Shown: one piece after another, positions 1 through 13,642 of the stretch
Layout of the letters: every line of letters begins with the position of its first letter
Numbering within the stretch: the first letter of the stretch is position 1
Origin: Polyangiaceae bacterium
GTDB lineage: Bacteria > Myxococcota_A > Polyangia > Polyangiales > Polyangiaceae
Length of the DNA stretch: 13,642 bases
Assembly: GCA_033763455.1 (NCBI GenBank)
Contig: JANRKO010000015.1
Span: 1 to 13,642, forward strand
Reading direction: 5' to 3'
Program-made: the position numbers and the translations under genes
Notes under the pieces: generated by a model
Told to the model about the DNA's origin: nothing
Database searches by the model: none
The model's input: only the letters and a program-made list of their open reading frames with translations

Positions 1-125
1 GCGGTCACATCAGGTACAAGCCGAACCCGGGTTGGCTCACGCTCGCCCGAGGCTTTGAAAAACTAAGCACCCTGACCGAAGGCTGGACCGCCGCCAAATT
101 ACAGCTACACAGTGATCAACCATGA
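1..125 (+). mobile_element. C-terminal end of an IS4-family (IS50/Tn5-like) transposase, 5'-truncated by the window edge
   Basis: Frame starting at 3 reads GHIRYKPNPGWLTLARGFEKLSTLTEGWTAAKLQLHSDQP* (TGA 123-125). This matches the '(LG)G..K.G.PGW.TL.RG' motif of the Tn5-type C-terminal dimerisation domain. Not in the ORF track because it is truncated. Confidence 0.8.
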
Positions 126-126
126 G
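111..126 (-). repeat. Probable right terminal inverted repeat of the IS4-family element
   Basis: The reverse complement CTCATGGTTGATCACT overlaps the transposase stop codon and begins with CT, as IS50-type ends do. The partner end is outside the window, so this cannot be confirmed. Confidence 0.4.
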
Positions 127-189
127 CGCATGACAAGTATCTCTGTGCGTCGTGAACCCTCGTCTCCGCGTCATGATTCGCGACTTCGC

Positions 190-221
190 AGTCGATGTCT
201 TGTTGCCGAGTCGATGTCTTG
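190..221. repeat. 13-bp direct repeat AGTCGATGTCTTG x2
   Basis: Exact copies at 190-202 and 209-221. Confidence 0.85.
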
Positions 222-270
222 CCGGGGCGGCGCGGGTTGAGCGTCGACTGTGTGCCGCTGATCGGGCGTA

Positions 271-795
271 TTAGGCAGTTTGCGAGGTGCGGCCGAGCGA
301 GAGCTGATGCTGGCGAGTGAGCGAGGTGGCGAAAGCCGTACTTACTGTGCCGATGAGCACATCTGTGTTTACGGGCTTACCCAAACAGAAATCAGCTAAT
401 TCTTCGGCACGCGTGTTCGAATGGGACGAATGCACCACCACCACAAGCGACGGATACCTAACCGCGACTTCCTCCAACAGAGCCAAGCCACCCATTCCGG
501 GCATCTCCAAGTCTGTCACCAACACGTCGAACGCCTCCCGCTCCAACGCGGCTAACGCAAGCTCGGCACTGGTGGCTGTAGTGACCCGCCATTCTGGCGT
601 GGCCAGGCCCATGAGGCGCGTGAGCCCGCGCAATAGGGGCGCTTCATCATCCACGAGCAGAAGGCGCCCACCCACCGCACGCACTGCTGAAGGTGGCGGC
701 TGAGTACCGACGCTCACCTCGCCCCGCGCCGCGGGCTTTAGGGACGGCACTGCCTTCATACCGCGCTCATTCTCTCTGGTATCCGACACAGCCAT
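271..795 (-). CDS. Single-domain response regulator (CheY-like receiver); start uncertain (ATG 795 or 759)
   Basis: LLLVDDE acidic pocket, phospho-acceptor D in VTDLEMPGMGG, S in VHSSH, conserved KP (CLGKPV); no output domain. Confidence 0.9.
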   Translation of the reverse strand: MAVSDTRENERGMKAVPSLKPAARGEVSVGTQPPPSAVRAVGGRLLLVDDEAPLLRGLTRLMGLATPEWRVTTATSAELALAALEREAFDVLVTDLEMPGMGGLALLEEVAVRYPSLVVVVHSSHSNTRAEELADFCLGKPVNTDVLIGTVSTAFATSLTRQHQLSLGRTSQTA

Positions 796-899
796 CTCTA
801 TTTCATTAAGAAAGCAGCCCAAAACTAGGCTAGTTCCACTCTCAACGTTATATAACGCCTTGCTTCCATTGCCGCAATGCGTATTGTGCGGGGGCTTCC

Positions 900-1031
900 A
901 TGGAATCCGGAATCGTCACGCTCATCAAAATCGTTTCCACGCTAGTGCTCGCCATCGGAATTATTCCGCTCGTGTTTCTGTTCTCCCAGGGAGACAAAGA
1001 CGAACCACGCGGTTTCAATTCTGACCACTAA
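900..1031 (+). CDS. Putative 43-aa single-pass membrane protein
   Basis: ATG 900 to TAA 1031: MESGIVTLIKIVSTLVLAIGIIPLVFLFSQGDKDEPRGFNSDH. One hydrophobic stretch then a charged tail; G-rich run just upstream of the ATG. Below the ORF-track size cut-off. Confidence 0.6.
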   Translation: MESGIVTLIKIVSTLVLAIGIIPLVFLFSQGDKDEPRGFNSDH

Positions 1032-1373
1032 ACCACGCCGTTCTAAATACGGGCGCTAAGCCCTACTTGTTAACCTCTTCCTTTAGGTTGCGAGCCGGGC
1101 GTCCGGTATTCGAATTCGACAGCTACCAGGGTGGAAACCTTGGGTGCCGTTTGGCATGGCGGCCGTAAGGGGGCCCGAAGCGCCGACGGTCGGCGGATCG
1201 GTTGGGGATTGCGTTAGGCGGGGTTGGCGTGGACGCCACCTGGGTCCATGCTGACTCAGTTCCACTGGCGGTGAACTTCCGCTGGCGGTTTTGCGCGGTC
1301 GCCAGAAAATCCCCACCTGTTCGATGAAACCAATCGGGGACGCCCCGCATAACACTCTCGCACCCAAGTCAGG

Positions 1374-2366
1374 ATGGAGACTTTGAGCATGACGTTTTCG
1401 ATTCACACCGCGACCCACTCAACCTTCAGCAATGCACGGCCCAGCTACGCACCTGTGATTTCACGCATCCCCGTTGCTCGTGCGCATTCACGCAGTTCAT
1501 TCACTGCTTCGCCAAGCGCGCAACTTGGTGATTCATTGCCAGCCGGTAAAGTCGTGCATTCGGGGACGCAGCGGGCTCCGTTTGGCCTCGCGAGAGTGTT
1601 GCTCCTTCTAGGCTTATTGCTTGGTGGCCTCCCAGCTTGTGAAGGCAAGCCTTCCGAAAAGTCAGTTCCCGTGAGCGCCGAGCTCAAAGCCCCAGAAGCT
1701 CCGGCTCGAACGTCGGAGAAATTCATCGTGGATGTGCCGACCTCCAAAGCCAACTTCTTGATGGATGCGCCGCTTGAGAAGATCTACGGCGAAGCGAACC
1801 AAGCCATCATGGGTGACCTCTTCGTCGATCTGAAAGATCTCTCCAAGAGCTCGGGCTTGCTCCGCGTTGACTTGTTAAAGCTTGAAGTATTTCAACAGAA
1901 ACGTGAAGACGAGAAGGGCCAATTCGGCGAACGTGTCAAGAATGACAAGCAGAACGAGCATATGCGCACATGGTTTGAAATTAGCGATGACGTTCCGCCC
2001 ATGGTACGCGAGAAGAACCGCTTCATCGAATTCAAGCTCACGCAGGTGACGCCTTCGGTGCCAGATGTAACAGCCCTGCAAGGTGACACTCGCACGTTCA
2101 CGGCTACCGTGACCGCAGATCTTCGCCTGCACCAGCGCACCGTGAGCCGTAAAACCAAGCTCGAAGTGACCGTGCTTTATGCGGGCGGGAAGCCCACTTC
2201 CCTTAAGGTGAAGTCTCTGGAGCCACTCATGGTGAACCTTGAGGCACACGACGTAGTGCCCCGCTCAGCTTTCGAGAAGCTAGCCTCCAAGAGCCTTGCC
2301 GCACTGGGCCCCAAAGTTGCGGCCGAGGCGCCCGTGCTCGTGGAGTTTACGGCCAAGGCACCGTAA
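1374..2366 (+). CDS. YceI-like (lipid/polyisoprenoid-binding) domain lipoprotein; true start probably downstream of 1374
   Basis: Hydrophobic segment plus lipobox-like LLGGLPA-C, followed by YceI-type motifs (F.MDAPLEKI.G; NEHMRTWFE aligning with RDxHL; TVTADLRLHQ aligning with V.G.L.LHG). The N-terminal ~60 aa look non-coding. Confidence 0.7.
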   Translation: METLSMTFSIHTATHSTFSNARPSYAPVISRIPVARAHSRSSFTASPSAQLGDSLPAGKVVHSGTQRAPFGLARVLLLLGLLLGGLPACEGKPSEKSVPVSAELKAPEAPARTSEKFIVDVPTSKANFLMDAPLEKIYGEANQAIMGDLFVDLKDLSKSSGLLRVDLLKLEVFQQKREDEKGQFGERVKNDKQNEHMRTWFEISDDVPPMVREKNRFIEFKLTQVTPSVPDVTALQGDTRTFTATVTADLRLHQRTVSRKTKLEVTVLYAGGKPTSLKVKSLEPLMVNLEAHDVVPRSAFEKLASKSLAALGPKVAAEAPVLVEFTAKAP

Positions 2367-2367
2367 G

Positions 2368-2437
2368 GCGTTCGTTGCGCCTTCGTTGATTGCGCCTTCG
2401 TTGGGCGCTCCTTCGTTGGGCGCTCCTTCGTTGGGCG
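2368..2437. repeat. 15-bp-period tandem repeat (core CCTTCGTTG) between convergent genes
   Basis: CCTTCGTTG at 2380, 2395, 2410 and 2425, plus a degenerate copy near 2368. Confidence 0.9.
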
Positions 2438-2510
2438 TACGTCAGTGGGCAACAAGTAGGTTCAGCGACGGACACACTGACAGATGATCGCTCTCCAGCG
2501 AGGAACTTGC

Positions 2511-5420
2511 TTAGCGACGAACTCGTTCGCGCAGCACGCTAACATGAAGACGCTCTTTAGCCCTCAGCAACTCCAAGCTCACATCAGAACCTTCCGGACC
2601 CTCGAACGCCCGCCTAGCTTCTTCGGACGAGGTTACTTGGCGCCCATCTACGGATAGGAGAACGTCCCCATCGCGCAACCCAGCGCGTTCAGCTTCACTG
2701 CCGTTTGCGACGGCTCCGATCATAACACCCTTTTGACCCTCGAACTCGCCTTCCCGGAGGCTTACGGCGACGCTGGCCCCGAGAATGGGCAATGCTTCAT
2801 AGGCTTCGCTCAACACCAGATCCCCCGCCTCCACGAGCTTCCCTGCGAACACCACTACGCCGACCAACTTTCCCTTGCCGACACCTGCAAGCTGCGCGTG
2901 AAGCTCGGCTGGCCCTTCTTTCACGGCCTGTAGCTCGAAGTGCCCCTCCGCATCGGTGAAAACCACCTCCGGCGGGAGCGTGCCCACAGGAAGGAACTCC
3001 GACACCTCGCCCACGCTCACCCGCGCTCCACTCACAGGCTCTCGCTTTTGATTCAACACGCGGCCCGTTACTCGACCGGCAGCTTCGAGGGTCCAAGGAT
3101 CTAACACCAAGGGGCGCCCGTGTGTATCCGCGGTGGGCACTTGAACAACTATCGATTGTGGTGCGAAGTCCGGATGCCGCACCTCAAAGCTCACCTTCGC
3201 CGGCGGCACATTCTCCAGAATGAAGTGCCCAGAATTGTCCGTCGTCGTAAAAAACCGAACGCCTTCGACTTGCGCCGATACACTCGCCCCCTCCACGTTT
3301 ACGTGGCCACGCACGCCCCGCACCACTCCCTCGACACGAACACCCAAAGCGAGCTTTACCTCCACACGCGTCTTCAAAGATGCTTCCGAATGGCGTGAAA
3401 GCGCATACCCGGGAGCACTTACCGTATATTGAACGTTACGCCCTGCCGCATCTTCCAACTCCGCATACCCTTCTGCATCGGTAAACAGCGTCTTGCGGAA
3501 GGGTGCGCTAGGGGTGAGAGACGCGACACTCACTTGAGCTAGGAGCAAAGGCTCTTCTCGTTGCCCAAGAACGCGAAACTTCACTTTATCGCGAAGGGGC
3601 GTAAGGGCTATTTCGATCTCTTGGCGCTGGTTCGGCACCACGCTGAAGGTTTCCCGATACACTGGCTGAAAAGGGGCTTCGGGGCGAGCGACCGTTACCA
3701 CCACTTGCGCCGGAAGAGTCGCGAACCGAAAGCTGCCGTCGGCTTCCGTCCAGGCGTTGCGACGCAGGGTGCCGCGCGCCGCCATCGCTTCCACACGTGC
3801 CCCGGCCACAGCGAAACCGCGATCGTCCTTAACAGTACCAAAAAGCTCCCCGCCCGCTAACAGCGTGATGACCACCTCGGCATGCCCACCTTTGCTCAAC
3901 ACGACGGCATCGCTCATGCCATCCACAAAATCCGGATGCCGCGCAATCACAAATACACGCCCCGGGGTTACCGGAAATGCCTTAAACCGGCCATCTTCGC
4001 CCGTAACCCAAGCAGCCGTGGCAGGAGGCTGAACGGCGCCCCCAGCTAACGCTTCGCCTCTTCCAGGAATGGGAGGAACTGGACCGGGCATAACACCCAA
4101 TTCTCCAACGGGGATGAGCAGACGAGGGCCTGATTCCGCCCAGGCGAAGTGAGAGCGCTCGAAGTCTAGCGCTTGCGGCGTTTCCGCGACCGGCAAGCCA
4201 AACACGTCGTTGCCGATAACTTCTATGGAGGCACCAGGCACCGCGAACCCACGCGCATCCTGCACTCGCCCCGAAAGCGTAGCACCACGAAGCAACTTCA
4301 CCGGGATGGGTTTCGGAAACGGGAAAGCCACCGGCAGCGCGTGCGTCGCCACAAAGCCTTCGGCGAAGGCACTTACGCCGAGACCACCTTCGGCAAGAGG
4401 GCCCAAGCTGATCTGACCATTCTTTCCAGTCTTTCCCCGCAGAGGGAAAAAGCTCAGCCCCTCTTCAGCAACCACTACTTCAGCATTAGCAATGCGAGCT
4501 TCTCCCAGGCCCTCTTCGCTCACCTCCACGAGCACAAACTGCCCCTCATGCAACGTGACGTCGAGCGTGAGCTTCGCGCCACGAGTTAACGCGAGAGGAG
4601 TGCGTGCAGTGCCAACGAGCGAACCCCGCTGTGCCTTCACCTCGTAAACCCCCTCGGGAAGCCCCAGAATATTTACTTCCCCTGCCGAGTTCGTGGCCAC
4701 GCGCCGTGGCGGCCACAAGCTCGCTCCCGCCAGGAAAACATCCGCTGCTTTGGCGGCTTTTCCACCAGGCTCCTTCACCCGTACTAGCAAGCTTGCCAGC
4801 CGCCCCAGCACCAAGCTCACCTCTTTCCGAACCTGTAAGCGCTCGCCCGGCTCTAAGCCTTCCGCATACACCCGAACTCTGAAGGGACCGGGAGTGAGCC
4901 GAGAAAACAGGGCCATTCCGCGTTCATCCGTGAGGGCGCCGTAAGGCAACGCTCCAGGAACATCCACCAACACACTCGCGCGCACGAGGGGCTTGCCTGA
5001 TTCGTCGCTGACTTTTACCGCCACAGCTTCGGCGTGAGCCAACTGCACTCGGACGTGTTGGAGCCCCTTTTTGAGCGTTCGCAACAGCGCCACCCGTGCG
5101 TATTCCTTGCTCGAAACCAAGAGCCAACACGATGCCGCCGGCAGATCGTTTAAAACGACCACTCCGCTCGCGTCTGTGGCGCCCGAGGCACCCTCTCGGT
5201 ACTTATCTCCAAGTGGACAATACACGCGCACCTCCGCGCGAGCCGCTTTGCCGCTCGGAGTTGTGACGGCCACCAGGAGCTGCGCCGCGGACGCGAAAGT
5301 TGGGACAAGAAGTGGCTGATGTTGAGCTACTGGCGTGTCGACCATGCCCACCACGACCACCACACAAGCTAACGTCACGAGCCATTGCCGGAAACGTTCG
5401 CTCAGCGTGCGCCCGGTCAT
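2511..5420 (-). CDS. Large secreted or membrane-anchored protein with multiple carboxypeptidase-regulatory-like beta-sandwich repeats and a C-terminal PDZ domain
   Basis: 969 aa; N-terminal hydrophobic segment; repeated G.V.D..G.PV.GA.V ... TD..G.F motifs; C-terminal PDZ signature V..GSEAERAGLRDGDVLLSVDG. Confidence 0.88.
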   Translation of the reverse strand: MTGRTLSERFRQWLVTLACVVVVVGMVDTPVAQHQPLLVPTFASAAQLLVAVTTPSGKAARAEVRVYCPLGDKYREGASGATDASGVVVLNDLPAASCWLLVSSKEYARVALLRTLKKGLQHVRVQLAHAEAVAVKVSDESGKPLVRASVLVDVPGALPYGALTDERGMALFSRLTPGPFRVRVYAEGLEPGERLQVRKEVSLVLGRLASLLVRVKEPGGKAAKAADVFLAGASLWPPRRVATNSAGEVNILGLPEGVYEVKAQRGSLVGTARTPLALTRGAKLTLDVTLHEGQFVLVEVSEEGLGEARIANAEVVVAEEGLSFFPLRGKTGKNGQISLGPLAEGGLGVSAFAEGFVATHALPVAFPFPKPIPVKLLRGATLSGRVQDARGFAVPGASIEVIGNDVFGLPVAETPQALDFERSHFAWAESGPRLLIPVGELGVMPGPVPPIPGRGEALAGGAVQPPATAAWVTGEDGRFKAFPVTPGRVFVIARHPDFVDGMSDAVVLSKGGHAEVVITLLAGGELFGTVKDDRGFAVAGARVEAMAARGTLRRNAWTEADGSFRFATLPAQVVVTVARPEAPFQPVYRETFSVVPNQRQEIEIALTPLRDKVKFRVLGQREEPLLLAQVSVASLTPSAPFRKTLFTDAEGYAELEDAAGRNVQYTVSAPGYALSRHSEASLKTRVEVKLALGVRVEGVVRGVRGHVNVEGASVSAQVEGVRFFTTTDNSGHFILENVPPAKVSFEVRHPDFAPQSIVVQVPTADTHGRPLVLDPWTLEAAGRVTGRVLNQKREPVSGARVSVGEVSEFLPVGTLPPEVVFTDAEGHFELQAVKEGPAELHAQLAGVGKGKLVGVVVFAGKLVEAGDLVLSEAYEALPILGASVAVSLREGEFEGQKGVMIGAVANGSEAERAGLRDGDVLLSVDGRQVTSSEEARRAFEGPEGSDVSLELLRAKERLHVSVLRERVRR

Positions 5421-5691
5421 CGTGCAGAAACGCTATCGCGAAAGCCTCGACACTCGCCAGCCCCTCGCCGCCTCCAGCACACCGGCAGCCCCTCTCCGCC
5501 CGGTGGAAACTGAGCAACGCTCGTCCACCTCAAGTTGACAGAACGTCAAAGCCACGACCGACCAGCAGTACGCCCCCAGAGACAGTGCTCCTACGATACG
5601 CACGCCGGATGCAGCCGTACGGGCGGCAGCGTTCGCTACCAGACGATCACCCAACGCTCTCAGGGCCGGCAGGCGTAACGGGTGGAAAAAC

Positions 5692-5835
5692 GTAACGCGT
5701 GGGGACCAGCGCGGGCGAGAAAGTAACCGGCGCGGACCAACTCGGGCGGGCAGCAACGCCGGCACCAATTCGGGCGGCAAGAGTAACCGGCGCGGACCAA
5801 CTCGGGCGGGCAGCAACGCGGGGAGACTCAGGGAA
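5692..5835. repeat. Degenerate ~30-bp tandem repeat with 60-bp higher-order period in a divergent intergenic region
   Basis: AGTAACCGGCGCGGACCAACTCGGGCGGGCAGCAACGC is exact at 5722-5759 and 5782-5819; about five G(T/C)AAC...ACCA...CGGG sub-units. Confidence 0.85.
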
Positions 5836-5907
5836 CCATCGGAGAGGCAGGCGTAGGTGAGACCAAGCGTCGCCCCGTCCTCGTGGGAGTGCTAGCCTGA
5901 ATGCTTC

Positions 5908-7143
5908 GTGCACTCACGTTTTCTTCTTTGGTGTGCCGGGGTCGCTTCCCTGGCCCTCTGCTTCTGCCAGTCTGAGAAGCCACCGGCATACTTTGACCTT
6001 TCCAGGAACAACTCCAACGCTAGCACCGGCGGTGCAGCTCCGGGTGATGTTGGATTTGAAATTCCTCCTCCACGGCCACCGGATATCAACACCATGGGCC
6101 TGTGCGTGAACGAAGTGACACCCGTGGCCATTGAAGCACCCAATCTGTATTTCGTTTTGGATCGCTCAGGCAGCATGCTGGAGCCTCTCGCGAATTCCCA
6201 ACTGAGCAAGTATCGAGCTGCCGAGGTTGCCATCGTGGAAATGCTACGAAAGATCGGCCATCGAGTGCGCTACGGTGCCACTATCTTTCCCGCCCCCAAC
6301 AGCCCAACAGGGTGCGGAGCCGGCGTGCAGATCTTGGAGGCGCAACGTGGGGACCCCTATTCAGCTGACCCAGATGCCGAGGACGGCCCAGTATTGCAGC
6401 TCTTCATCGACAAGCTCAATCGTTCAGCACCGCCGGTAAGTGGCAGTGGCGGCACGCCAACAGCTGCAACACTCGCAGCGCTTGTGGATCCACTCGCGGC
6501 ACTCCCCGGCAGCACCGTGGCTGTACTCGTCACGGATGGCGCCCCCAACTGCAACGCCAAGGCCACGTGTGATCAGGACAACTGCATTGCCAACATTGTC
6601 TTGGGGCCCACAGCCTGCGGCCTCAACGTGAACTGCTGCAGCACTCAGGCGAATGGCTCACCCGAAGGCTGCTTCGACCAGGAGCCAACAAGGGCGGCAG
6701 TAAAATCGCTGGCGGATCGCGGCATTCAGACCTTCGTCGTCGGCATGCCCGGCAGCGAAGCTTTCACCACCCTCCTTAACCAACTCGCCGTGCTCGGTGG
6801 GACTGCCCGCTCGATGACTCCAGCTACTCCAACAACTCCAACAACTCCAACAACTCCCGACTACTACTCAGTGAACGACACCCAAGCTCTTGGTAATGCA
6901 CTGCTCGAAATCGGAGCCTCCCTAGCCCAGAGCTGCGAAGTGGCTCTCAGCAAAGCGCCGCCGGACCCCGCGCTCGTTAACGTCTTTCTTGATCTCGACG
7001 TGATTGGGCAGAGCGAGACCAACGGTTGGACTTGGAACGGCACCTCCGCCCTAACTCTACGAGGCGACGCCTGCGATCGAGTGAAGCTCGGTAACGTTCA
7101 ACAGATCCAGGTAGTGGCGGGTTGCCCCACCGTCCTTAGGTAA
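5908..7143 (+). CDS. Secreted/lipoprotein von Willebrand factor A domain protein with Cys-rich insertion
   Basis: Signal-like N-terminus with Cys; MIDAS DxSxS (FVLDRSGSM), GGTPT, and VLVTDGAPNC; Cys-rich loops and C-terminal VVAGCPT. Confidence 0.9.
   Translation: MHSRFLLWCAGVASLALCFCQSEKPPAYFDLSRNNSNASTGGAAPGDVGFEIPPPRPPDINTMGLCVNEVTPVAIEAPNLYFVLDRSGSMLEPLANSQLSKYRAAEVAIVEMLRKIGHRVRYGATIFPAPNSPTGCGAGVQILEAQRGDPYSADPDAEDGPVLQLFIDKLNRSAPPVSGSGGTPTAATLAALVDPLAALPGSTVAVLVTDGAPNCNAKATCDQDNCIANIVLGPTACGLNVNCCSTQANGSPEGCFDQEPTRAAVKSLADRGIQTFVVGMPGSEAFTTLLNQLAVLGGTARSMTPATPTTPTTPTTPDYYSVNDTQALGNALLEIGASLAQSCEVALSKAPPDPALVNVFLDLDVIGQSETNGWTWNGTSALTLRGDACDRVKLGNVQQIQVVAGCPTVLR
6817..6858 (+). repeat. 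In-frame 9-bp tandem repeat (ACTCCAACA) encoding TPATPTTPTTPTTP
   Basis: actccagct actccaaca actccaaca actccaaca actccc. Confidence 0.9.
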
Positions 7144-7144
7144 C

Positions 7145-8158
7145 TTACCTCGGAAAATCAAGTGGAGATCTAACACCCAAACCACCACGATTGAGGACGT
7201 GTGTGTAGATCATGGTGGTGGTAACCGAGCGGTGCCCGAGCAACTCTTGGATAGTCCGAATGTCGTAGCCAGCATCCAAGAGATGTGTTGCAAATGAATG
7301 CCGAAGCGTGTGGCACGTAACTCTCTTGCTGAGCCCAGCAACAAGCCCCGCAATACGCACCGCTCGCTGTAGGGCAGATTCATGAAAATGATGGCGCCTG
7401 CGCTGATTCAACTGCCGATGGGTGTGAACACGAGATGCAGGAAACAGCCATTGCCAGGGCCATTGCCGACCAGCCTGATAAAGCTTCCGCTCCAAGCCCT
7501 CCGGGAGCGCCACCCAGCCGGCGCCCGCGGCCACATCCAACCGGTGCTGAGCACGCACGCGAGCCAAGTGTTCCCCGAGCTCCACGCTCAACTGCGAAGG
7601 GAGCGGTGTGACTCGATCTTTTGCCCCTTTCCCCTGGCGAACAACAATCTCCCCTCGCTCAAGGTCCACATCCTTTACGCGAAGCTCCGCACACTCCATC
7701 AGACGTAACCCCGACCCATAGAGCAGGCTCGCCATCAGCTTGGGAGTACCCTCCATGCGCTCCAGCACACGTTGCACCTCGGTACGCGTGAGCACCGTTG
7801 GCAGCCGTTCCGCGGCCTTAGCTCGAACGAAAACCGGCTCATCCAACGGTGACATCAACACGCGTTGGTAGAGGAAAAGCAGTGCCGCCAGCGCTTGGTT
7901 CTGGGTAGCAGCCGCAACCTCCAGTCGATTCGCCAAGTCACTCAGGAAAGCCGACACCTCCGGCGCCCCCATTTCTGACGGGTGCCGGAGACGATGAAAC
8001 CGAACGAAGCGTTTCACCCACCCCTCATAGGCCTCAATCGTTCGAGGACTATAGTGCCGGAGGCGAAGCTCGCTTCGCATCATTTCAAGCAGCCTGGGCC
8101 CATGAGATGGTGTCACACCCCAGCTAACAGCAACCTCTGTGCCAGCGGCACCACCCAC
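7145..8158 (-). CDS. intI: Integron integrase (tyrosine recombinase); start GTG 8158 or GTG 8116
   Basis: RHYSPRT.EAY and TQNQAL.ALLFLY N-terminal motifs; catalytic R (SGLRLME), K (GKGAKDR), HxxR (HTLRHSFATHLL), H (LLGH) and Y (TMIYTHV); integron-specific insertion WQWLFPAS...RRHH; divergent from an attC array. Confidence 0.98.
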   Translation of the reverse strand: MGGAAGTEVAVSWGVTPSHGPRLLEMMRSELRLRHYSPRTIEAYEGWVKRFVRFHRLRHPSEMGAPEVSAFLSDLANRLEVAAATQNQALAALLFLYQRVLMSPLDEPVFVRAKAAERLPTVLTRTEVQRVLERMEGTPKLMASLLYGSGLRLMECAELRVKDVDLERGEIVVRQGKGAKDRVTPLPSQLSVELGEHLARVRAQHRLDVAAGAGWVALPEGLERKLYQAGRQWPWQWLFPASRVHTHRQLNQRRRHHFHESALQRAVRIAGLVAGLSKRVTCHTLRHSFATHLLDAGYDIRTIQELLGHRSVTTTMIYTHVLNRGGLGVRSPLDFPR

Positions 8159-8248
8159 AAAGTCTCGACTCCTGCAAGCTCACCCGCACGTCAGTAGCAA
8201 CTCCGATGTCCGACAGACAGACACCCCCCCAAGGCCATCAGCCCAAGA

Positions 8249-8350
8249 ATTATGCAGATCACCAGTAACCGATTAGGCAGATCTGTCTAAATGTGCGACC
8301 CGGCGGGAACCTAGGGAATTCCCTCTATTTTGGCTCGGATTATGCGAATC
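8249..8350 (+). promoter_or_regulatory. Three 12-bp imperfect direct repeats upstream of attI (candidate IntI accessory or regulator sites)
   Basis: ATTATGCAGATC 8249-8260, ATTAGGCAGATC 8272-8283, ATTATGCGAATC 8339-8350. Confidence 0.55.
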
Positions 8351-8369
8351 CTACTTTCAGGCGTTTGTT

Positions 8370-8387
8370 GGCTAATGTACGTTGGGC
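8370..8387 (+). other. attI simple site (crossover G|TT at 8381/8382)
   Basis: GGCTAAT-GTAC-GTTGGGC: an inverse-core-like L box and a GTTRRRY R box. No attC palindrome upstream; similarity to the repeated cassette begins here. Confidence 0.85.
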
Positions 8388-8922
8388 AGACGCTTGGGTA
8401 ATTTTGGTTTGGTGTCGCTAAAGAGCCTGCTGTGGTGCAGTCGAAGCTTGGCGCGGCCCGCCGACTCGGACACCGCCTCCTTCGCGGCCTTCTCTTGCGT
8501 TTAGTGCCCCTGATTCAATGGCTTCGCGTCAGGTGCCGCCTTCGCGCTCTTTCCTCCAGGAATGCCAGCTTCGCTCGATCAGCACGTTGTGTTTGCTTCC
8601 GCTGTGTATTTTCGAAAGAGCGCTGCAGCTGCTGGTTGCTGCTTTTTCGAGAGTGCCAGGCGCTGCTTTCCGGCCCGGACACCGCCGCCTTCGCGGGTTT
8701 CTCTCGCGTTTGGTGCCCACCGGCCATGGCACGGCGTCGGGTGCCTCGCTCGCGGTTTCGTGTGACGTCATGCCTTCCTTGCTGCTTTTTCCAAGCGGGC
8801 CGCCGCTCCGTTTTGCCTCGTTCTCCCTTCCTTCGCGCGGCGCTGCCCAACATGCGCTTGCAGCTGACGAGCGCCGTCGCTCGCTTCGCTCACTCTGGCC
8901 CTCGCACCTGAAGCGTTGTACG
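8382..8922 (+). mobile_element. Cassette 1 (541 bp), gene-less repeated family, copy A
   Basis: Bounded by the attI GTT and attC 8845-8928; no ORF conserved between family copies. Confidence 0.9.
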
Positions 8923-8928
8923 TTGGGC
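8845..8928 (+). other. attC site (84 bp, subtype A)
   Basis: R'' GCCCAAC, CGCTTGCAG/CTGAAGCG arms with an extra G, R' GTTGGGC. Confidence 0.95.
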
Positions 8929-9462
8929 AGACGCTTGGGTAATTTTGGTTTGGTGTCGCTAAAGAGCCTGCTGTTGTGCCCAGGGTGCTTGGCGCGGCCT
9001 TCCGACTCGGACACCGCCTCCTTCGCGGCTTTCCTTCGCATTTGGTGCCCCTGATTCAATGGCATCGCGTCGGGTGCCGCCCTCGCGCTCTTTCCTCCAG
9101 GAATGCTGCCTTCGCTCGATTCGCAATTAATGTTAGCTGGCTGCTGTGCATTCTCGAATGAGCGTTGCAGCTGCTGGTCGATGCCTTCCGAGACTGACGG
9201 GCGCTGTTCTCCGCCTTGGAGATGACTGCCCTCGCGGGTTTCTCTTGCGCTTGGTGCCCATCGGCCTTTGCACTGCGTCGGGTGCCATCCTCGCGGCTTC
9301 GTGCACACGCATGCCTTCCTCGCTGATGTTTCCAAGCGGGGCGCCGCTCCGATGTGCCTTGCTCTCGGTTCCCTCGCACGGCGATGCCCAACAGGCGCTT
9401 GCAGCTGACGAGGCCGTCGCTCGCTTCGCTCACTCTGGCCCTCGCAGCTGAAGCGTTGTACG
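8923..9462 (+). mobile_element. Cassette 2 (540 bp), gene-less repeated family, copy B
   Basis: First 48 nt from the core G are identical to cassettes 1 and 3; ends in attC 9386-9468. Confidence 0.9.
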
Positions 9463-9468
9463 TTGGGC
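9386..9468 (+). other. attC site (83 bp, subtype A)
   Basis: GCCCAAC...CGCTTGCAGCTGAC...GCAGCTGAAGCG...GTTGGGC. Confidence 0.95.
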
Positions 9469-10005
9469 AGACGCTTGGGTAATTTTGGTTTGGTGTCGCT
9501 AAAGAGCCTACTGTTGTGCCGTCGAAGCTTGGCGCGGCCTGCCGACTCGGACACCGCCTCCTTCGCGGCCTTCTCTTGCGTTTGGTGCCCCTGATTCAAT
9601 GGCTTCGCGTCGGGTGCCGCCTTCGCGCTCTTTCCGCCAGGAATGCCACCTTCGCTCGATTCGCCAGTCATGTTAGCTTGCCGCTGTGTATTCTTCGAAA
9701 GAGCGCTGCAGCTGCTGGTTGCTGCTTTTTCGAGAGTGCCAGGCGCTGCTTTCCGGCCCGGACACCGCCGTCTTCGCGGGTTTCTCTCGCGTTTGGTGCC
9801 CACCGGCCATTGCACGGCGTCGGGTGCCGAGCTCGCGGTCTTGCGAGCCGTCATGCCTTCCTTGCTGCTTTTTCCAAGCGGGCCGCCGCTCTGATAGGCC
9901 TCGTTCTCCCTTCCTTCGCGCGGCGCTGCCCAACATGCGCTTGCAGCTGACGAGCGCCGTCGCTCGCTTCGCTCACTCTGGCCCTCGCACCTGAAGCGTT
10001 GTACG
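9463..10005 (+). mobile_element. Cassette 3 (543 bp), gene-less repeated family, copy C
   Basis: 9898-10011 is identical to 8815-8928 of cassette 1 (114 bp). Confidence 0.9.
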
Positions 10006-10011
10006 TTGGGC
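9928..10011 (+). other. attC site (84 bp, subtype A), identical to 8845-8928
   Basis: GCCCAAC 9928-9934, GTTGGGC 10005-10011. Confidence 0.95.
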
Positions 10012-10626
10012 GGACCTTCGGCCATTTCCATTGAGGGCCGACATGGACGCTCGCTGATTACCTTCTTTCGGAAGGGCAGGTGTCGAACCGGATTTGTGCC
10101 TGACCCTCGATCGCGGGATGGCTGTTTGCCCCATCCTTCCTGCGTCGCTGCGTCGTAGTGCCTGACCGGCACTTCCGATTTGGCTGACGCAGGGTGGGCG
10201 CCTTCTGCTAGGTGGCTTAGCCGCTTCGCTGTCCGATGTGCTTCGCCACCTTTCTGATTGCTGCCCTTCCGTCCCGGCCCTTCGCACAGCTCGTCCCGCG
10301 CAACGAAGTTAAACTGAGCCTCGGGCCGTGCCGTTCTGCCCTTCCGGTTTCGTCGTTGCTCAGGATCCCGGGCTTTCCCTTGATCATCGGCTCGCCTCGA
10401 CGTCTTGTTGGGCTTCTTCTCGCGTTCGGTGCCCCGCTCACTCTTGCTAAAGCCGTTTTCGGCCCGAACACCTCGGCCAGCTGCGCTCTCCGACTGGGGA
10501 ACGGATCGCTGATTAGCTGCATTTTGCCACTACTGCTTCCCTGCGCCCAACAAAGCGTTGCAGCTGACGAGCTTGTCGGTCGCCCCAAGGGGCTCCCTCT
10601 GGCGCTCGCAGCTGAACGCCGGTACG
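10006..10626 (+). mobile_element. Cassette 4 (621 bp), no convincing ORF, unrelated to the repeated family
   Basis: The first SD-preceded ATG (GAGGGCCGACATG) stops after four codons (MDAR*). Other ORFs cross the attC or lack recognisable motifs. Confidence 0.75.
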
Positions 10627-10632
10627 TTGGAC
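10545..10632 (+). other. attC site (88 bp, subtype B)
   Basis: GCCCAAC-AAAGCGTTGCAGCTGAC...GCAGCTGAACGCCGGTAC-GTTGGAC. Confidence 0.95.
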
Positions 10633-10650
10633 GGACCGAGAGCCACGGAC

Positions 10651-11424
10651 ATGAGCGATACAGATGACCGTTGTCACCCGCTGCATGCTTCGGAGCGCCT
10701 CTGGCACGAGAGATACCCCTCAGCCTTGGCCGTTTTCTGCGCTGGCTCGGTAATTCGCGGCGAGGCTTTTGCTTCTTCGGACCTCGACGTTGTTGTCCTA
10801 TTCCGCCAACTCCCCAATGCCTGGCGCGAGTCCTTTCACTTCCTGGGCTGGCCTGTTGAGGTCTTCCCTCACGACCCGGAGACTCTCGCTTACTTTGTGC
10901 GAGATGATTGTAAGGGTGGCGTGCCTTCCCTGGCGTCGATGCTTGCAGAGGCCCTGATTGTGCCTGGCTCAAGTCCCCGCGCCGATCGCGTACAGACGTG
11001 GGCAAGGGCCATCGTCGACAGTGCTCCACCTCGCCCTTCACTCGCCGCTCTCGATCAGGAACGCTATGGCATCACAGACCTCTTGAACGACTTTCGCGAC
11101 AACCGAGCCCGTCCCGAGCTGCTGGCCATCGCGTGTAAGCTGTACCTTCAGGTATCTAACTTTTGCCTCAAATCACGCGGGCATTGGCTGGGCTCCCCCA
11201 AACGGCTACCGCGGTCCCTCCGCCATGTGAGCCCAGAACTCTCCGCGGCAGTGGAAAATGGCTTTGAAATTTTCTTTAAGACGGGCCTCCGCAACGAAGC
11301 CATCAACGCTGTCCAACTTGCGTTGGAACCATTTGGTGGCGAACTCTTCGACAGTTTTCGTTCCGATGCCCCAGGAGATTGGCGCCTTCCAACTACAGAT
11401 ATCCCTTGGGCAAACGGCCTATGA
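10651..11424 (+). CDS. Nucleotidyltransferase (Pol beta superfamily) domain protein, 257 aa; gene of cassette 5 (10627-11536)
   Basis: GS...DxD signature (CAGSVIRGEAFASSDLDVVV), third acidic residue in PVEVF, helical C-terminal region. ATG 10651 lies just after the cassette core site; the ORF-track start 10558 is inside the attC. Confidence 0.88.
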   Translation: MSDTDDRCHPLHASERLWHERYPSALAVFCAGSVIRGEAFASSDLDVVVLFRQLPNAWRESFHFLGWPVEVFPHDPETLAYFVRDDCKGGVPSLASMLAEALIVPGSSPRADRVQTWARAIVDSAPPRPSLAALDQERYGITDLLNDFRDNRARPELLAIACKLYLQVSNFCLKSRGHWLGSPKRLPRSLRHVSPELSAAVENGFEIFFKTGLRNEAINAVQLALEPFGGELFDSFRSDAPGDWRLPTTDIPWANGL

Positions 11425-11455
11425 GACTGACGTCTTGTTACTTCCTCGCCGAGCC

Positions 11456-11542
11456 GTCCAACAAAGCGTTGCAGCTGACGATCGCTTCGGTCGCGCTGTG
11501 CGCTCCCTCTAGCGCTCGCAGCTGAACGCCGGTACGTTGGGC
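11456..11542 (+). other. attC site (87 bp, subtype B)
   Basis: R'' GTCCAAC is the complement of this cassette's own start GTTGGAC (10626-10632); R' GTTGGGC 11536-11542. Confidence 0.95.
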
Positions 11543-12076
11543 ATGCGCTTAGGTGGTTGTGGTTTGGCTTCGCTAAAGAGCCTGCTGTTGCGCCGAGGTT
11601 GCTGGGCGCGGCCTGCCGACTCGGACACCGCCTCCTTCGCGGCCTTCCTTGCGTATGGTGCCCCTGATTCGGTGGCTTCGCGTCGGGTGCCGCCTTCGCG
11701 CTCATGGTTCCGGAAATGCCGCCTTCGCTAATACTGCGTAACAAGTTAGCTTGCTGCTGTCATTCTCGGGAAGAGCGCTGCAGCTGCTGGAATCTGTGGT
11801 TTCGAGGCTGCCGTGCGCGGCTTTCCGACTCGGACACCGCCGTCTTCGCGGGCTTCTCTCGCGTATGGTGCCCACCGGCATTCGTACCGCGTCGGGTGCT
11901 TCGCTCGCGGCTTCGTGGGCGATCGTGCCTTCCTTGCTGTTGTTTCCAAGCGGGGCGCCGCTCAGATATGCCTTGTCGCCTCTCCATCGCACGGCGATGC
12001 CCAACAGGCGCTTGCAGCTGACGAGGCCGTCGCTCGCTTCGCTCCCTCTGGCCCTCGCACCTGAAGCGCTGTAACG
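11537..12076 (+). mobile_element. Cassette 6 (540 bp), gene-less repeated family, copy D (visibly more diverged)
   Basis: Shares CGCTAAAGAGCCTGCTG, CCGACTCGGACACCGCC, GCGTCGGGTGC and TTTCCAAGCGGG blocks with cassettes 1-3. Confidence 0.9.
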
Positions 12077-12082
12077 TTGGGC
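11999..12082 (+). other. attC site (84 bp, subtype A)
   Basis: GCCCAAC 11999-12005, GTTGGGC 12076-12082; nearly identical to attC 9386-9468. Confidence 0.95.
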
Positions 12083-12090
12083 GGACCGAC

Positions 12091-12396
12091 ATGCCGACCT
12101 GGGACGACGTTATTGCTCGCGAATTTCCCTGCAAGAAGTGCAAGGGAACATTTCGGGTTCCCGGTCCGATTGACGATTCAGGTCTCTCCGAAATTCGGCA
12201 ACTGCTCGAGAGCGGGCAACCTATTTCCGCAATTCGCCGGATCCGAGAACTTACCGACGCGGAGTTGCGGGACGCCAAGGGCATGTACGAGCACGTCACT
12301 ATTTTTCGCGGCAGGTGTCGCGAGTGCAGCCTTCCGTTGCCAAGCGGGGTCCTCGCCGATTGTCCACAGTGCGGCGCGCTAAACATCAATGCCTGA
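12091..12396 (+). CDS. Hypothetical 101-aa protein with three CxxC motifs and an L7/L12-CTD-like helical motif; gene of cassette 7 (12077-12751)
   Basis: ATG 15 nt after the core-site G; CKKC, CREC and CPQC; ISAIRRIRELTDAELRDAK resembles the I.AIK..RE.T..GL.EAK motif. Confidence 0.75.
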   Translation: MPTWDDVIAREFPCKKCKGTFRVPGPIDDSGLSEIRQLLESGQPISAIRRIRELTDAELRDAKGMYEHVTIFRGRCRECSLPLPSGVLADCPQCGALNINA

Positions 12397-12670
12397 TGTG
12401 CTCCCCCACGGTTCCAGACTCGACACATCATGCGTCTACCCGAGGTTCCAAGACCTGAGAACTGAAGGTATACCTTCTCCAGCATCACCGTCCTGGATTG
12501 AACCGAATAGCTGACCGCTCCTGGTGCTGCGACCAGTTCACCGTCGTCATATTTCAGGATGACTTTCAAGGCACACTCCTCGGCCAGCGCGACGCCCAGG
12601 ATGCATGCGCTATTCTCATTGCACTTCGAGCGCTTGTCGAGACGTTCGGGCGAGCTCTAACCGCGGCGCC

Positions 12671-12757
12671 GCCCAACAAACCGTTGCAGCTGACGAGCGC
12701 TTCGGTCGGCTTGCAGCCTCCCTCTAGCACTCGCAGCTGAACGCCGGTACGTTGGAC
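12671..12757 (+). other. attC site (87 bp, subtype B)
   Basis: GCCCAAC 12671-12677 ... GCAGCTGAACGCCGGTAC GTTGGAC 12751-12757. Confidence 0.95.
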
Positions 12758-12765
12758 GGACAGTC

Positions 12766-13215
12766 ATGGAGGCGATGGCAGTAACGATCGGGTCCACCGG
12801 AGGAAACAGGGTGGTATTACGACCGCACGTGCGATCGCGTGGAGATGCCCTCGATTACTGGGACGGCAATTGGATCGATTGTACGGTAGTTGTCGCAGCA
12901 GGCGGGTTCCGAGGTGAGTACGTCGCGTGTTTGAGAGCTGAGGAATTCGTTTCCTTTCGCCGTGACCTGGAGCGACTTTACGCCGAACTTCGCGGCCAGG
13001 GTCAATTTCGATCGATGGAAGAGTGGGTCACACTCGATTTTGCCGGAGACGGACGGGGAACCTTCCGCGGTACCTGCCGTTTGCGAGATCGCGCGGGCGA
13101 CGGCAACCTCTTAGAATTCGGAATTGAGTTCGACCAAACCGATGTCCCAGCGATGGTTCGAGACTTGAAGGAAATCGAAGAGGCTTTCCCGGTAGTTGGG
13201 GACCCCGGTGGCTAA
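12766..13215 (+). CDS. Conserved hypothetical protein, possibly WapI-like immunity family, 149 aa; gene of cassette 8 (12752-13422)
   Basis: ATG right after the core site; motifs DYWDGNWI, F.SME.W, GDGRG and FDQT. I recall these from proteins annotated as WapI-family immunity proteins; the family call is unverified. Confidence 0.7.
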   Translation: MEAMAVTIGSTGGNRVVLRPHVRSRGDALDYWDGNWIDCTVVVAAGGFRGEYVACLRAEEFVSFRRDLERLYAELRGQGQFRSMEEWVTLDFAGDGRGTFRGTCRLRDRAGDGNLLEFGIEFDQTDVPAMVRDLKEIEEAFPVVGDPGG

Positions 13216-13338
13216 CTTGACGTTGATAACGTGCCACGATGCCCGACGGCAAGCGCTTGAGGGTCTTGTCCGGATAGCGCAACGCGAACCCAATAGAGCG
13301 TGTCCCAGCCACTTCCAATCACCACCATCAATCGAGCC

Positions 13339-13428
13339 GTCCAACAAAGCGTTGCTGCCGACGAGCGCCTCGGTCGCCCCGAGCGGGGCTCCCTCTAGCG
13401 CTCGCAGCAGAACGCCGGTACGTTGGGC
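13339..13428 (+). other. attC site (90 bp, subtype B) with a compensatory arm change
   Basis: R'' GTCCAAC complements the cassette start GTTGGAC; arms TTGCTG/CAGAA replace TTGCAG/CTGAA seen in the other sites. Confidence 0.95.
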
Positions 13429-13642
13429 AGACGCTTGGGTTGTTTTGGTTTGGCCTCGCTAAAGAGCCTGCTCTTGTTCCGAGGCTGCTTGGCGCGGCCT
13501 GCCGACTCGGACACCGCCTCCTTCGCGGCCTTCTCTTGCGTTTGGTGCCCCTGATTCTATGGCTTCGCGTCGGGTGCCGCCTTCGCGCTCTTTCCTCCAG
13601 CAATGCTGCCTTCGCTCAATTCGCAAGTAATGTTAGCGTGCT
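13423..13642 (+). mobile_element. Cassette 9 (truncated by window), gene-less repeated family, copy E
   Basis: TTGGGCAGACGCTTGGGT...CGCTAAAGAGCCTGCT...CCGACTCGGACACCGCCTCCTTCGCGGCC, as in cassettes 1-3. Confidence 0.9.

Follow-up and report, generated by a model that had tools for sequence, protein, structure and literature searches.

A family of homologous cassettes without a coding signature in a GC-rich integron of a Polyangiaceae bacterium

According to the available portions of Boucher et al. (2006; PMC1382264), between 6 and 49% of the cassettes of Vibrio are non-coding and tend to be paralogous, with 6 copies in DAT722 and 45 and 34 in two strains of V. vulnificus; these families, conserved over their whole length with no synonymous pattern and with no relatives outside the vibrios, were proposed to be either selfish or carriers of promoters or RNAs, and gene conversion was also invoked. 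The available text of Blanco et al. (2024; PMC11014356) reports sense-strand promoter activity in most of 29–30 gene-less cassettes of 491–666 bp, links that activity to AT-richness, and recognizes some of the cassettes as degenerated genes; the same text describes, from Tansirichaiya et al. (2019; PMC6557892), the cassettes lacking an open-reading frame (ORF) in Treponema-type integrons of an oral metagenome, which cassettes were proposed to be promoter carriers. Whether non-coding cassettes parasitize the integrase or regulate the array is a long-standing loose end, studied almost only in the AT-rich Vibrio. Here we analyzed a stretch of 13,642 nucleotides (nt) from a Polyangiaceae bacterium (assembly GCA_033763455.1, contig JANRKO010000015.1, positions 1 to 13,642; henceforth, the window), in which an integron contains five homologous cassettes with no coding signature.

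The intI gene (7145–8158, minus strand) encodes a full-length integron integrase of 337 amino acids (aa) that matched the TIGR02249 profile with 427.7 bits (cutoff 265) over profile positions 1–313 of 315, and that also matched the Pfam families Phage_integrase and Phage_int_SAM_4. The attI region (8159–8387, plus strand) ends with the core GTTGGGC (8381–8387), which is the first GTTRRRY past intI; further cores are located at 8922, 9462, 10005, 10626, 11536, 12076, 12751, and 13422, and every attC core has an RYYYAAC box 70–80 nt to its 5' side; in all, nine boundaries and eight such boxes were located. By cutting the cores at G|TT, whereby cassette 1 begins at the TT at 8382, we obtained the limits of nine visible cassettes on the plus strand, five of which, including the three beside attI, belong to a single family: c1 (8382–8922, 541 bp; attC 8845–8928), which adjoins attI; c2 (8923–9462, 540 bp; attC 9386–9468); c3 (9463–10005, 543 bp; attC 9928–10011); c6 (11537–12076, 540 bp; attC 11999–12082), the most diverged copy; and c9 (13423–13642), of which 220 bp are visible before the window ends. 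With the addition of c4, the gene-less cassettes amount to six of the nine visible. The bottom strands of seven attC sites were folded as single-stranded DNA (ssDNA), and all seven formed a hairpin with z-scores of −2.03 to −3.86 with respect to dinucleotide shuffles (c1, −3.03; c2, −2.99; c6, −2.03) and with the paired R boxes, unpaired spacer, bulged bases, and terminal loop in place; the attC of c3, which was outside that set, is identical to the attC of c1 over alignment columns 471–544. The units thus have what defines an integron gene cassette—an integrase and attI in the neighborhood, an attC bounded by GTTRRRY and RYYYAAC, and a bottom-strand hairpin.

The five copies align end to end with only seven gap columns, all of them of 1 nt, and were also picked up as the window repeat families D1–D5. 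The mean column identity was 81% across the alignment, and in windows of 60 columns the copies were 73–100% identical. Each member has a body of 462–465 bp followed by a canonical attC of some 80 nt, which latter element is better conserved than the body: the pairwise identities were 0.80–0.93 over columns 1–220, 0.76–0.95 over columns 221–470, and 0.96–1.00 in the attC, while 137 of the 463 body columns were variable among the four complete copies. The longest invariant run, CCGACTCGGACACCGCCTCCTTCGCGGC, extends over 28 nt and exceeds 99.4% of the variable-column shuffles (p = 0.006); by the same comparison, invariant runs of 15 nt or longer were present in ordinary numbers (p = 0.50). The likeness, furthermore, is patchy: the identity between c1 and c3 ranges from 86–88% to 100% among 60-column windows, with c3 being 95–100% identical to c1 over columns 211–330 and 451–544, and the nearest copy to c2 in columns 151–240 is c9. 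This patchwork is the pattern expected of recombination or gene conversion among copies, which latter process the mosaic identity suggests; and because the identity is mosaic and the attC more conserved than the body, c1, c2, and c3 are not fresh tandem duplicates of each other.

Each body is the outcome of an old duplication and consists of two diverged direct-repeat modules of about 125 nt, designated A and B. The internal repeat is visible in c3, where positions 69–170 and 280–380 of the cassette are 77% identical over 103 nt (E = 8e-17). Module A is located at 8441–8566 in c1, 8982–9107 in c2, 9522–9647 in c3, 11596–11720 in c6, and 13482–13607 in c9; and module B at 8650–8774, 9191–9315, 9733–9857, and 11805–11929 in c1, c2, c3, and c6, respectively, all on the plus strand. 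The nine modules—five A and four B—align nearly free of gaps and have in common the blocks GGACACCGCC..CTTCGCGG, TTCTCT.GCGT.TGGTGCCC, GCGTCGGGTGCC, CTCGCG, and a terminal TGCC. A module covariance model scored 109–139 bits on its nine training modules, as follows from its construction, and no higher than 9.6 bits elsewhere in the window. Tandem Repeats Finder reported nothing in the family because the period is above 500 and the sub-repeats are too diverged. An asymmetric motif of 15 nt, GGCACCNNACGCNAG, occurs 14 times with at most one mismatch, always on the minus strand, against an expectation of 0.12; these occurrences, confined to the family plus one in c4, are copies of each other and not independent. 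The top strand of the family is poor in A, with about 10% A versus 27% T and an AT skew of −0.42 to −0.48, which ranges become about 10–12% A versus 25–28% T and −0.41 to −0.48 upon inclusion of c4; in the coding cassettes c5, c7, and c8 the two bases are roughly balanced. The notion that the skew keeps the recombining strand unstructured for attC folding was rejected, the bottom-strand ssDNA folding energy per nt being similar in the family bodies (−0.172 to −0.185) and in c5, c7, and c8 (−0.154 to −0.178). A mid-cassette stretch resembling the left arm of attC, TGCAGCTGCTGG, was likewise discarded as an attC relic, its self-match (E = 5.2) not being significant.

Every coding test applied to the family was negative. 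On neither strand is there a stop-free frame common to all copies, each frame of each copy having 0–4 stops; the only frames with no stop at all are minus frame 1 of c2 and of c3, which frames, owing to single-nucleotide indels in columns 231, 264, and 493, are different homologous frames over module B in the two copies. The seven indel columns of the family, each of a single nucleotide, likewise speak against a protein. The nearly open minus frames lack a stop within the cassette and continue through the upstream attC, so that a mobile cassette could carry no self-contained gene there. Codon periodicity was absent, the 143 variable columns being split 50/44/49 by position modulo 3, and no periodicity appeared inside columns 1–220 or 221–470 either. 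The synonymous fraction, obtained from the codons with one nucleotide difference between c3 and each other copy, was 0.36, 0.31, and 0.24 for the three frames of the plus strand and 0.23, 0.33, and 0.27 for those of the minus strand, with no frame standing out. No ORF of at least 12 codons has start and stop columns common to all copies, as would be looked for in a toxin–antitoxin or small-protein cassette. Finally, the best-conserved block, GGCACCCGACGC, as seen by inspection, is read under the third minus frame (frame X) in one reading frame in module A and in another in module B, owing to a 1-nt gap at column 77 of the module alignment (A5); its conservation is therefore at the level of the nucleotides.

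The protein searches led in the same direction. Among 11 ORFs of both strands—the plus-strand translations being compared with Pfam alone—nothing meaningful was found in Pfam at E ≤ 1, the two matches obtained (E = 0.041 and 0.31) lying far under the cutoffs, and NCBIfam gave no match for the family ORFs. The literal long minus-strand ORF (8529–10172, 547 aa), which runs from c4 through c3 and c2 into c1 and in so doing crosses three attC sites, had no Pfam match and no homologue outside the family: in a HMMER search of 1.84 billion representative proteins this query, which spans, out of three minus frames, two in module B and one in module A, matched only a fragment of 60 aa, P0001. In a word-indexed search of 5.8 billion clusters the c3 frame at 99–315 aa gave no match, the search at 30–98 aa gave P0001 only, and frame X at 61–196 aa gave none. 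Two minus-strand translations had no usable hit in the protein atlas, and their recognition values, 999 and 1087, were far under the 2300 that 91% of the known families reach, which value, by the tool's own warning, does not settle whether a gene is real. Long minus-strand ORFs arise here because that strand contains only about 10% T and stop codons are hence rare; a spurious ORF of 547 aa over three cassettes is what gene callers can yield under such circumstances, thus constituting an annotation hazard in GC-rich integrons.

An earlier reading of this DNA, made from the letters alone (the sequence-only reading), had described homologous but non-identical copies of 541, 540, 543, and 540 bp that filled five of the nine array positions, three of them proximal to attI, and in which no frame survived in all copies and no coding constraint was apparent; the cutting at the cores gave the same sizes, c1, c2, and c3 follow the attI core at 8381, and the alignment, the stop counts, and the lack of synonymous bias in the six frames bear out the remainder. 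That reading had, in addition, placed in c1 a stop in the frame of the long minus-strand ORF, at TTAGTG, where c2, c3, and c9 have TTGGTG. The substitution is present and, in c1, interrupts the counterpart of the frame that is open in c2 and c3, but the literal 547-aa ORF ends instead at GTCAGG through a c1-specific G-to-A change (TGA on the minus strand, 8529–8531), because 1-nt deletions in c1 at columns 218 and 231 had shifted the frame beforehand. The 1-nt deletion that had been noted in c6 at the TTGGTG site was found 7–10 nt away, at column 112. The c1-specific G-to-A changes at 8503 and 8531 produce minus-strand stops, TAA and TGA, in two frames, which is probably a coincidence. A short plus-strand ORF (MASRRVPPSRSF...) recurs in the five copies (8518–8590, 9059–9130, 9599–9676, 11672–11731, and 13559–13630); it extends over 19–25 codons in module A of c2, c3, and c9, starts with GTG in c6, and is open-ended in c1, there being no stop within that cassette. 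By eye it is preceded by no sequence resembling a Shine–Dalgarno element, its changes are mainly non-synonymous, and it is probably not a gene.

The family fits the kind of non-coding cassette known from Vibrio since 2006 in every respect tested except for ORF length. As with the Vibrio families, to the extent that they are described in the available portions of Boucher et al. (PMC1382264), our cassettes are bounded by attC, gene-less, repeated within one array, and conserved over their whole length with no synonymous pattern, which likeness is one of description; the two hypotheses offered there, a selfish element or a carrier of promoters or RNAs, are also those considered here. Unlike the Vibrio array, whose GC content those portions give as about 41%, the family cassettes have a GC content of 62–64% and reside in a Polyangiaceae host; and neither a two-module duplication nor a strong A/T skew is mentioned for the Vibrio families in the same portions. 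At the protein level only a fragment of another copy was matched, as is proper to a gene-less cassette; the ORFs of 83–159 aa within the copies and the 547-aa read-through, however, exceed the limits used for defining such cassettes (≤150 bp in 2006 and ≤210 bp in 2024), which measure is uninformative here because the DNA is 62% GC and poor in T. With the promoter cassettes in the available text of Blanco et al. (PMC11014356) the family shares the size class of 491–666 bp with an attC, the lack of a gene, and the location in sedentary chromosomal integrons, but differs from those cassettes, which are defined there by promoter activity, in being GC-rich and in having no sigma-70-like site found in it. 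Like the Treponema-type cassettes (PMC6557892, as described in PMC11014356), the family lacks a gene; in this window intI is divergent from the array, and no sigma-70-like promoter was found in the family copies. We found no description of non-coding cassette families in Myxococcota in the open-access literature searched.

The only outside relative that emerged from the three large protein searches was P0001, a fragment from a Polyangiaceae metagenome-assembled genome (MAG) whose best match to the window translations was of 95.8% over 48 aa and which is a piece of a further family copy. Since the window does not encode P0001, the family must include at least one copy beyond these five, and this finding together with the mosaicism of c1–c3 indicates a larger pool of copies. 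At the DNA level, the pattern GGACACCGCCNNCTTCGCGG proved too unspecific when searched for over a genome collection of 596 Gb, where it was present in at least 120 loci from many phyla with one match each; blastn of c2, c3, and c6 against those loci (1.29 Mb) gave only alignments of 22–84 nt around the pattern (E ≥ 7e-6), and the module model, run on 100 of them, gave at most 29 bits versus the 109–139 bits of the true modules, so that no relative was recognized. Blastn in its distant mode with c3 against 72,556 plasmids gave no match.

In integrons, the integrase excises cassettes through recombination between two attC sites and inserts them through recombination of an attC with attI, so that new insertions come to lie beside attI. 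We consider it probable, though far from settled, that the five cassettes constitute a paralogous non-coding family within a GC-rich sedentary chromosomal integron, from which family no protein is made and which has been multiplied by IntI and persists mainly as a good substrate of that enzyme. The integron's own integrase would multiply and move the copies by attC × attC excision and subsequent re-insertion of a copy at attI, as the standard model and the attI-proximal positions suggest; the repetition of that re-insertion would place family copies in the first slots, and recombination or gene conversion between the copies would then homogenize them patchwise. Persistence would result mainly from the quality of the cassette as an IntI substrate, in the manner of a selfish or hitch-hiking element, and the strand-asymmetric body may possibly also act on the array as nucleic acid, either as a transcript or as an insert that modulates transcription, any function of that body being putative.

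A number of observations, nevertheless, weigh against this explanation. For a purely selfish element the attC alone would suffice, but several traits of the body give the impression of constraint: the length is kept at 462–465 bp with indels of 1 nt only; the 28-nt block shows no variation among the complete copies, four in number, or in the partial c9; modules A and B keep their shared blocks though being only 77% alike; and an A/T strand skew of such a magnitude is not something that neutral DNA should keep. The skew, the constant length, and the shared blocks are left unexplained by pure selfishness, which circumstance keeps alive the alternatives of an RNA or transcriptional role and of a pseudogene, the skew being also in agreement, as are the minus frames in their near-openness, with decayed copies of a former minus-strand gene. 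Moreover, with four to five copies from one array, conservation is inseparable from recent common descent or gene conversion. The sequence-only reading had taken the conserved length and blocks as pointing to a functional element, to which proposal the 28-nt block lends slight support and the ordinary number of runs of at least 15 nt lends none; its other suggestion, a selfish cassette spread by IntI, fares at least as well.

If the body were a strand-specific regulatory RNA, or else a promoter, silencer, or leader for the transcription of the array that was kept and amplified for its function through dosage—which we regard as unlikely—the strong strand-specific skew confined to c1–c3, c6, c9, and c4 would be accounted for, as would the recurrence of GGCACCNNACGCNAG on one strand, notwithstanding the lack of independence of those occurrences. 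A hairpin of about 50 nt (columns 56–106 of A5) is possible on the plus strand in all nine modules, with a stem of 8 bp that includes three G.U pairs and with an inner helix of 3 bp altered on both sides between A and B; the minus strand lacks that hairpin because the stem needs those three G.U pairs. Paired cells amounted to 95.7% in the named module structure versus 31–45% with slid partners, and two pairs showed double changes, which slid-partner control is biased in that these very sequences had served to derive the structure; for this reason, and since the covariation represents one evolutionary event, the hairpin is a lead and not evidence of an RNA. The body of c3, furthermore, folded no better than its shuffles (z = +1.58 and +1.18 for the plus and minus strands, respectively), the covariation terms of the whole-cassette consensus folds were close to zero (−0.25 and +1.56 kcal/mol), and a search of the whole window on both strands with the 4227 models of Rfam 15 yielded nothing at E ≤ 1. 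The non-coding RNA that had been proposed from the letters finds itself, accordingly, with no Rfam match, no folding above that of shuffles, and a covariation reduced to a single event of A versus B among few independent sequences. A regulatory small RNA borne by an integron would have a precedent in the sRNA-Xcc1 of Xanthomonas, whose presence among those 4227 models was not confirmed. As to transcription signals, a consensus scan, whose coverage excludes the promoter types of the host, found no sigma-70-like promoter in the family copies on either strand and only one such site, in c7, over the 5.5 kb scanned, versus 0.8 expected; five terminator-like hairpins were found versus a shuffle mean of 7.6, those within the family being weak and present in c1 and c3 only; and a sigma-54 promoter at the GGCAC motifs was rejected by eye, the spacing to the GC being 2 nt short of the consensus. 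The sense-strand promoter activity of most of the gene-less Vibrio cassettes argues for a transcriptional role, but the available text of Blanco et al. (PMC11014356) ties that activity to AT-richness, and the GC content of the present family is 62–64%. A more specific version, in which each copy would be a mobile RNA gene amplified in copy number, with two strand-specific modules of about 125 nt and a dose tuned by the integron via the copies beside attI, we judge decidedly unlikely; the product might be a pyrimidine-rich sense RNA made from a cassette promoter and containing the conserved hairpin with its G.U pairs, or a purine-rich antisense RNA, rich in GGA and AGGAGG, that titrates a protein or ribosomes. 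If true, such a reading would mean that in Myxococcota an integron both spreads an RNA-based function and sets its dose.

That the copies might be pseudogenes, decayed from a gene that once encoded on the minus strand a disordered and repetitive protein of high charge, with the skew and the near-open frames as leftovers, appears quite improbable to us. The minus strand is certainly rich in purines and poor in T, its stops average about 2.2 per frame versus the approximately 4.5 that we estimated by hand from the base composition, and frame X (...GHQT[RQ]EK.AK.AVS...) has homologous counterparts in portions of modules A and B and contains no stop along module B in c1, c2, c3, and c6; in c6, in addition, both modules share one frame with a single stop, in which frame P0001 passes from the final part of module B to module A. 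Degenerated genes are, besides, reported among the gene-less Vibrio cassettes in the available text of Blanco et al. (PMC11014356). Nevertheless, neither frame X nor the other minus frames have a homologue except for another copy, frame X is broken in all five copies by different lesions, the differences between A and B show by inspection no third-position bias, the best-conserved block falls in different frames in the two modules, no self-contained gene can be drawn in minus frames with no stop within the cassette, and the orientation would be opposite to that of the array. An assembly artefact, by which similar repeats of some 540 bp would have been mis-joined or multiplied in a metagenome-assembled genome, has in its favor that repeats of 80–95% identity are difficult for short-read assemblers and that the only outside relative itself comes from a MAG; but the five copies are all distinct, which speaks against a collapsed or duplicated repeat, every junction is a complete and correctly phased attC, and c6 and c9 lie among coding cassettes to which they are unrelated, so that we find such an origin very improbable.

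With its three slots on the attI side, its two-module architecture, and its strand skew, this GC-rich family would offer a good second test case for the role of non-coding cassettes. Should the body prove dispensable for mobility, the selfish view would be supported; should a discrete transcript or an effect on the neighboring cassettes be observed, the concept of regulatory cassettes would be extended beyond Vibrio.

With respect to the other cassettes, c4 (10006–10626, 621 bp) is unrelated and has no credible gene, its plus frames containing 5–7 stops with no match in Pfam or NCBIfam and its top strand having 76 A and 160 T; it has the one GGCACCNNACGCNAG copy on the minus strand (10419–10433) and a 37-nt match to c3 at 81% (E = 8e-5). 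Its candidacy as a family member was rejected upon the module model's giving 7.2 bits (E = 1.1), and we therefore treat it as a separate gene-less cassette. The coding cassettes c5 (10627–11536, 910 bp), c7 (12077–12751, 675 bp), and c8 (12752–13422, 671 bp) carry plus-strand ORFs, which are thus oriented as is usual for cassette genes expressed from the integron promoter. The 257-aa ORF of c5 (10651–11424) has weak nucleotidyltransferase signatures, all far under the cutoffs (PF01909, E = 1.3e-3; the MntA antitoxin model, E = 1.4e-3; ANT(4')-II, E = 8.6e-3). The Cys-rich ORF of 101 aa in c7 (12091–12396) belongs to no family, a Lar-like model (E = 5.4e-3) being under its cutoff, and is followed by about 270 nt with no gene, and it is in this segment, on the minus strand (12640–12612), that the array has its single sigma-70-like site. 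In c8, a WapI-like immunity protein is encoded (12766–13215; PF24716, E = 3.7e-25, 89.2 bits), for which the visible part of the array contains no partner toxin.

Among the flanking genes, one encodes a CglB-like gliding lipoprotein (111.8 bits, under the cutoff of 200) and another a protein of 969 aa in which a PDZ domain accompanies multiple CarboxypepD_reg domains; both suggest a host within Myxococcota, as does the Polyangiaceae origin of P0001. Between these CarboxypepD_reg/PDZ and CglB-like genes there is a direct repeat of 41 nt (5722–5762 and 5782–5822; 98% identical, spaced 60 nt), and just 3' of a YceI-like ORF, at 2369–2439, there are four overlapping copies of a tandem unit of about 15 nt similar to CGTTSRTTGCGCCTT.

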